Positions 32,837-32,913 of a DNA stretch of 64,000 nucleotides are shown here, one piece after another (the stretch's first letter is position 1; each line of letters opens with the position of its first letter). The position numbers and the translations under genes were made by a program. Location: NCBI RefSeq assembly GCF_057098645.1, contig NZ_CM169472.1. One strand, 5' to 3'. The notes beneath the pieces were generated by a model. That model saw nothing but the letters and a program-made list of their open reading frames with translations. It did no database searches and was not told the DNA's origin.

Positions 32837-32913
32837 CCGCCATTAGCTCATCAGGAAAGAGCGCCAGCTTTCGAAGCTGGTTGCGCGGAGTTCGGGTCCC
32901 CGAAGGCGGTCCA
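32837..32913 (+). tRNA. tRNA-Arg (anticodon UCG) with atypical T-loop, argN-like
   Basis: Acceptor ccgccat/aaggcgg (one mismatch), anticodon loop ttTCGaa, T-arm cggag-ttcgggt-ccccg, CCA end. Confidence 0.6.

Follow-up and report, generated by a model that had tools for sequence, protein, structure and literature searches.

A probably eroding argN allele in the ileZ-argN-argO tRNA trio of an Escherichia lambdoid prophage

Several lambdoid phages carry tRNA genes downstream of Q, and those for tRNA-Asn and tRNA-Thr in SfI, Sf6, ST64T and P21 have been taken to supplement the decoding of codons that the host rarely uses (PMC3636060). The 64-kb window, the whole stretch of DNA analysed here, contains a lambdoid prophage integrated next to yccA, and its late-regulatory region likewise holds tRNA genes, although of different tRNA species. 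ARAGORN calls three of them, all on the plus strand, in the order ileZ, argN and argO. The middle gene, argN, lies at 32837-32913 (+), specifies a tRNA-Arg with anticodon UCG and is present as a damaged allele. Comparative sequence analysis makes it quite probable that this allele is an eroding copy of a known prophage gene, which ordinary decay would have turned into a hypomorph or a dead gene. Codon bias offers only a weak rationale for argN, as it does for the tRNA-Asn of SfI.

The 271-nt tRNA cluster matches 289 phage records, mostly Stx-converting phages, with the same gene order and near-identical sequence, and is present in 3060 of 5426 complete E. coli genomes. Several Stx2 phage records name the trio ileZ (tRNA-Ile), argN and argO. 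In the Stx phages Stx2a_1447 (AP012536), Stx2a_WGPS2 and Lahn2, argN occupies the same position between ileZ and argO, is 77 nt long and carries anticodon UCG. The middle tRNA of the window also sits between ileZ (CAU) and argO (UCU), has anticodon UCG and is homologous to the annotated argN genes; it is the argN gene of the trio found in lambdoid and Stx prophages of Escherichia. These names rest on GenBank annotations plus general knowledge, and full-text literature searches on ileZ/argN/argO and on prophage Arg-TCG found nothing relevant. The gene is not a new kind of element but a long-annotated prophage tRNA, its exact sequence already entered as tRNA-Arg in hundreds of RefSeq genomes. 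The original prediction, made from the window sequence, had proposed either a degenerate pseudo-tRNA or a phage tRNA for CGA codons. Both proposals hold at different levels, the family being the CGA-reading argN and the allele a degenerate member of it.

ARAGORN scoring, suggested in that prediction as a check, returns tRNA-Arg(tcg) at 32837-32913 on the plus strand. The gene also passes the Rfam tRNA model RF00005 with 42.9 bits, the gathering score being 29, and its E values of 9.2e-06 for the entire 64-kb window and 1.3e-08 locally show that the tRNA call is not due to chance. In cloverleaf register, the acceptor stem forms six of its seven pairs, with A6 (32842) facing A67 (32904) where canonical alleles have A6:U67; this is the one acceptor mismatch reported earlier. 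The T arm departs from its expected form, a five-pair stem with U54, U55, C56, a purine at 57 and A58. Its loop reads UUCGGGU (TTCGGGT in the DNA, 32891-32897), as noncanonical as first described, with G at Sprinzl position 58 (32895) instead of the conserved A; canonical argN T-loops read TTCGAGT, TTCAAGT or TTCGAGC. The T stem adds a second non-pair that had been overlooked, A52 (32889) facing C62 (32899) where canonical alleles have G52:C62, so the damage had been slightly understated. The cmscan alignment marks both A6·A67 and A52·C62 as non-standard pairs and shows an intact D arm with G18 G19 and an intact anticodon arm (five pairs, 7-nt loop, U33). The anticodon loop, UUUCGAA at 32869-32875 with the anticodon at 32871-32873, has U at position 32, where every canonical allele has C. 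G58 leaves the secondary structure unchanged but abolishes the U54-A58 trans Watson-Crick/Hoogsteen pair, described in a review as a key elbow contact of tRNA (PMC7912444).

Comparison with Stx2a_1447 showed that ileZ and argO are identical to those of the window at 153 of 153 positions, whereas argN is identical at 69 of 77 and differs at the other eight. If substitutions were spread evenly over the 230 tRNA sites, all eight would fall in argN by chance with a probability of 1.6e-4. The Stx2a_1447 gene has A58, G52:C62, A6:U67 and C32, contains zero non-standard pairs and scores 55.9 bits; the window allele, with G58, A52·C62, A6·A67 and U32, scores 13 bits lower. Rfam tRNA scores trace a decay series from canonical argN (56-58 bits) through alleles with G58 only (47.9), G58 plus A52·C62 (45.5) and the window allele with C32 (43.4) to the window allele itself (42.9). 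Beyond it lie the window allele with G50A (37.5 bits), the 'GCAAT' class with further acceptor and anticodon-stem mismatches (22.2 bits), and indel relics of 66, 80 and 81 nt, which give no Rfam tRNA match. At the same loci ileZ scores 72.5 bits in most cases (lowest 68.3) and argO 62-72. The earlier description of the flanking tRNAs as canonical is borne out by their scores of 72.5 and 70.1 bits in the window, where the middle tRNA has 42.9.

Evaluated directly, the cloverleaf of the window allele has a free energy of -20.0 kcal/mol and those of canonical alleles -28 to -31 kcal/mol, leaving the window cloverleaf less stable by about 8-11 kcal/mol. In canonical alleles with UUCAAGU or UUCGAGU loops the cloverleaf is the minimum-energy structure, and in the window allele a competing hairpin (UUCGG/CCGAA) replaces the T arm in the minimum-energy fold; such folding alone is uninformative, because ileZ and argO also miss the cloverleaf by minimum free energy. 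A separate peculiarity belongs to every argN allele, canonical ones included: C1-G72 and U73 (window 32836-32837 and 32909-32910), with an A at position -1 that could extend the helix to 8 bp by pairing with U73. Bacterial elongator tRNAs do not usually have this arrangement, which may be the reason that canonical argN scores just 56-58 bits.

Polarity comes from searching a single representative genome of each bacterial species for an exact ileZ 25-mer. This search found the cluster in only E. albertii, Escherichia sp. MOD1-EC7003 and one metagenome-assembled genome, three matches that are useful for polarity and too few for distribution. All three clusters have G52, A58 and U67, and the E. 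albertii argN has its own single acceptor-stem non-pair. Judged by these outgroup sequences, G58, A52 and A67 are derived. Intermediates are present as well: G58 with intact stems; G58, A52 and A67 together with C32; and the window allele, which adds U32. Later states add G50A to the window allele or have TCA in place of its CCA. This sequence series fits a stepwise loss in which the window allele stands three to four steps along.

The argN slot was surveyed in IMG/VR with a scan anchored on the anticodon arm of argO, so that sampling was independent of the state of argN. It yielded 90 clusters with ileZ upstream, a redundant sample with many near-identical E. coli prophages. Canonical argN occupies 32 of the 90; three have A58 with one mismatch, three G58 only, nine the window class, 14 multiple lesions and 29 indel relics, leaving argN eroded in roughly 60% of the sampled clusters. 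Of about 140 ileZ..argO clusters, 36 gave no argN call in ARAGORN. When unique haplotypes whose argN is 77 nt long are compared pairwise, the mean distance is 0.0026 for ileZ, 0.086 for argN, 0.016 for argO (anchored bases excluded) and 0.17 for the 13-nt spacer after argN. On average, argN thus changes at about 30 times the rate of ileZ, about five times that of argO and about half that of the spacer.

The kind of change also differs between lineages. Canonical alleles show one-sided changes that keep pairing through G·U, whereas damaged lineages accumulate A·C, A·A and C·A non-pairs. Further lesions occur in 15 of 17 G58 alleles and in 4 of 17 A58 alleles (Fisher p = 3.6e-4, uncorrected for shared ancestry). 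No argN base pair has changed on both sides among the 34 distinct 77-nt alleles, and shuffles match the observed values; this alignment is too shallow to argue for or against structure. Some relics have a form of their own: relics of 80-84 nt recur in at least 20 IMG/VR clusters (L162, L069, L063, L136 and others), with the acceptor and D arms of argN, and in some cases a canonical T arm, preserved and a different 7-bp hairpin (ACGAUAACAGGGUUGU) in place of the anticodon arm. One of them is called by ARAGORN at relaxed threshold only, with a 4-base 'anticodon'.

With derived, uncompensated loss of conserved features and elevated divergence relative to functional neighbours, the window argN has the marks of a tRNA pseudogene. 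Pseudogenes of tRNAs likewise lose tertiary or stem features, score lower with covariance models and form allelic series down to unrecognisable relics. Unlike full tRNA pseudogenes, the window argN is part-way along its series.

A canonical argN would read CGA by Watson-Crick pairing. In E. coli, CGA is already read through inosine wobble by the multi-copy tRNA-Arg(ICG), whereas AUA, AGA and AGG depend on rare tRNAs. Codon use was compared between the prophage and the flanking chromosomal genes using rough greedy open reading frame (ORF) calls, giving approximate frequencies per 1000 codons of 9.1 against 3.4 for AUA, 7.4 against 2.1 for AGA, 5.1 against 0.5 for AGG, 5.8 against 3.1 for CGA and 18.7 against 10.9 for CGG. 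The codons of ileZ and argO are thus enriched 2.7- to 10-fold in the prophage and CGA about 1.9-fold. Codon usage, the other check suggested in the original prediction, thus shows a weak enrichment of CGA and a stronger one of AGA and AUA. The densest CGA use in the prophage is in a PerC-family regulator ORF at 41936-42250 (+), with 4 CGA, 5 CGG and 3 AGA in 103 codons. Three IMG genomes (638341086, 2711768068 and 2609460218) carry a window-class argN together with a canonical argN on another prophage, a redundancy that probably adds to relaxed selection on argN. For argO, copy number tracks the AGA enrichment of laterally transferred genes in O157:H7 (PMC4539685).

Several observations weigh against reading the window argN as an eroding gene. 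Its D arm, anticodon arm, U33, anticodon and encoded CCA end are all intact. The identity elements for arginyl-tRNA synthetase are A20, C35 and G36/U36, and the allele has A20, C35 and G36, its D-loop AUCAGGAAA placing A at position 20. Every tool used calls it a tRNA (ARAGORN, and Rfam by its gathering score), and the NCBI Prokaryotic Genome Annotation Pipeline (PGAP) annotates it as tRNA-Arg. The exact 77-nt sequence is unchanged in 559 of 5426 complete E. coli genomes of several serotypes and also occurs in at least 36 IMG/VR contigs. Among 57 window-class clusters, segregating sites number 8/77 in argN, 3/76 in ileZ and 6/77 in argO; argN has no significant excess (8/77 against 9/153 in its neighbours), and hence no significant sign of ongoing relaxed constraint within this clade. 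The codon comparison, for its part, rests on rough ORF calls and just 3867 host codons.

The tRNA-Arg calls, the intact arms with A20, C35, G36 and CCA, and the unchanged allele in 559 genomes would all agree with a fully working CGA decoder in which the T-loop and mismatches are tolerated, for example through stabilising modifications or binding partners. The promoter-like site and terminator-like hairpin on either side of the trio and a CGA use about 1.9 times that of flanking host genes point the same way. Such a decoder nevertheless seems unlikely, since the three structural changes are derived and none is compensated in 34 alleles, the cloverleaf is weaker by about 8-11 kcal/mol, A58 belongs to a key elbow contact (PMC7912444), and sister alleles are still decaying through G50A, CCA to TCA and indels. 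The cross-genome identity extends, moreover, to neutral spacers: 696 records match the full 271-nt module, spacers and all, at 99% identity or more. With the spacers around it just as unchanged, the allele's occurrence in 559 genomes points to recent shared ancestry or spread and not to independent conservation or selection. A high cloverleaf score and the same variant in other phages had originally been named as signs against degeneracy. The score of 42.9 bits proves middling, below the 56-58 of canonical argN and the 70-72 of the neighbours, while the variant does recur in 559 of 5426 genomes; more distant clusters hold canonical argN or worse relics.

A different explanation would make the argN slot a fast-evolving tRNA-like element under diversifying selection, acting as a decoy or escape from tRNA-targeting nucleases or as a regulatory RNA. 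Variation in the slot far exceeds that in its neighbours (43 alleles, compared with nine for ileZ), position 32 of the anticodon loop alternates between C and U, the acceptor-stem ends are kept even in relics of 66-84 nt, and at least 20 clusters share the 80-81-nt form whose anticodon hairpin has been replaced. We regard this as very improbable, given that argN diversity (0.086) stays below that of the adjacent spacer (0.17), so that its rate is not above neutral. The changes are stem-breaking transitions and indels scattered without concentration in the anticodon loop, the only changes in canonical alleles preserve pairing (G·U) as expected under purifying selection, and no defence or nuclease gene is linked to the cluster in the annotation inspected. 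Similarly hard to credit is the idea that the G58 T-loop or the replaced-hairpin relics are retained to evade or titrate a host or competitor factor recognising the tRNA elbow or tRNA-Arg, or as a scaffold for processing ileZ and argO. If it were true, the slot would be a diversifying tRNA-like locus rather than a case of simple decay. Nuclease evasion was rejected as the main explanation, since the anticodon loop shows no concentration of changes and the spacer evolves at least as fast. Sequencing or assembly error is refuted by the identical 77 nt in 559 independently assembled complete genomes and at least 36 IMG/VR contigs.

Four changes separate the window allele, probably a product of ordinary decay, from the canonical gene: A58G, abolishing U54-A58; G52A, giving A·C in the T stem; U67A, giving A·A in the acceptor stem; and C32U in the anticodon loop. 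Transcription together with ileZ and argO presumably continues from the upstream promoter-like site. The allele remains tRNA-like enough for gene finders, with a much less stable cloverleaf and a compromised elbow, and is probably impaired or non-functional. Partial function may persist, since A20, C35, G36 and the anticodon arm are retained. As a hypomorph or dead gene, argN would serve at most as a structured spacer trimmed off during maturation of ileZ and argO. The likely cause is weak selection on argN, because CGA is mildly over-represented, the host already reads it and polylysogens often carry an intact argN elsewhere.

Erosion of this kind matters little by itself and has a modest bearing on annotation, as automated pipelines count the window allele as a working tRNA-Arg and may thereby inflate estimates of tRNA copy number in pathogenic E. 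coli. It also offers a natural contrast within 250 bp: ileZ and argO, which serve strongly enriched rare codons, are near-invariant, while argN, serving a weakly enriched codon that the host can read, erodes. This contrast would illustrate codon-demand-driven selection on phage tRNAs.

A putative sigma-70-like promoter at 32715-32743 (+), consisting of TTGATT, a 17-nt spacer and TATTAT, matches 9 of 12 consensus positions and is predicted 10 nt upstream of ileZ; the flank upstream of the trio varies among clusters, with a mean pairwise distance of 0.36. The ileZ gene, at 32754-32829 (+) with anticodon CAU, is called tRNA-Met(cat) by ARAGORN and tRNA-Ile by RefSeq/PGAP and scores 72.5 bits in Rfam. 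We take it to be an AUA reader once its CAU anticodon is lysidine-modified. The argO gene, an AGA/AGG reader at 32927-33003 (+), is called tRNA-Arg(tct) and scores 70.1 bits. A predicted terminator-like hairpin, GGCTCGCTTTTGCGGGCC, with seven pairs of which six are G-C, is followed by T8 at 33018-33045 (+). From these consensus scans, the promoter-like and terminator-like sites bracket the trio into what looks like a self-contained transcription unit. Elsewhere argO itself is interrupted: it is cut within the anticodon loop in E. albertii (L178; …CTTCTAAGCA|GCTGTGG…) and within the T-loop in one IMG/VR contig. From sequence, these cuts suggest that tRNA genes act as recombination or insertion breakpoints.

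The prophage is similar to, yet distinct from, that of strain E2865, from which insertion sequence (IS) elements and divergent segments set it apart. Its gene order runs from an antiterminator-Q-family ORF through three small accessory genes (a CPBP-family protease, a hypothetical ORF and an AraC-type helix-turn-helix protein) to the tRNA trio, a homologue of the small RNA (sRNA) STnc100 and an IS21 insertion, and beyond it to a SASA-family esterase gene, lysis genes, and head and tail genes. The Q-family ORF, of 126 amino acids, lies at 30040-30420 (+); Q is frameshifted according to PGAP in the closely related E2865 prophage. The STnc100 homologue (33080-33270, +, 138 bits) directly follows the trio terminator and has counterparts called in 11 of 13 other loci scanned and also at 4662-4877 of locus L002. 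In the window it follows the cluster without intervening stx genes, unlike in Stx2a_1447; in the Stx2a phage, argO and STnc100 are separated by stx2AB, which looks as though it had been inserted where they meet. The anti-GcvB sRNA AgvB abuts STnc100 on the opposite strand in three loci, with no AgvB call in the window.

Mobile elements and small RNAs mark other parts of the prophage. An IS21-family element at about 33670-35800, with an IstA-like ORF (33772-34944) and IstB (34941-35741), sits just upstream of the SASA-family esterase gene and is missing in the related E2865 prophage. The lysis region is interrupted by an IS3-family element at about 39627-40938, which contains an ALIL pseudoknot (40486-40602). 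The early region carries the DicF sRNA at 18550-18601 (-) and a sok/hokD type I toxin-antitoxin locus at 27854-28028 (+).
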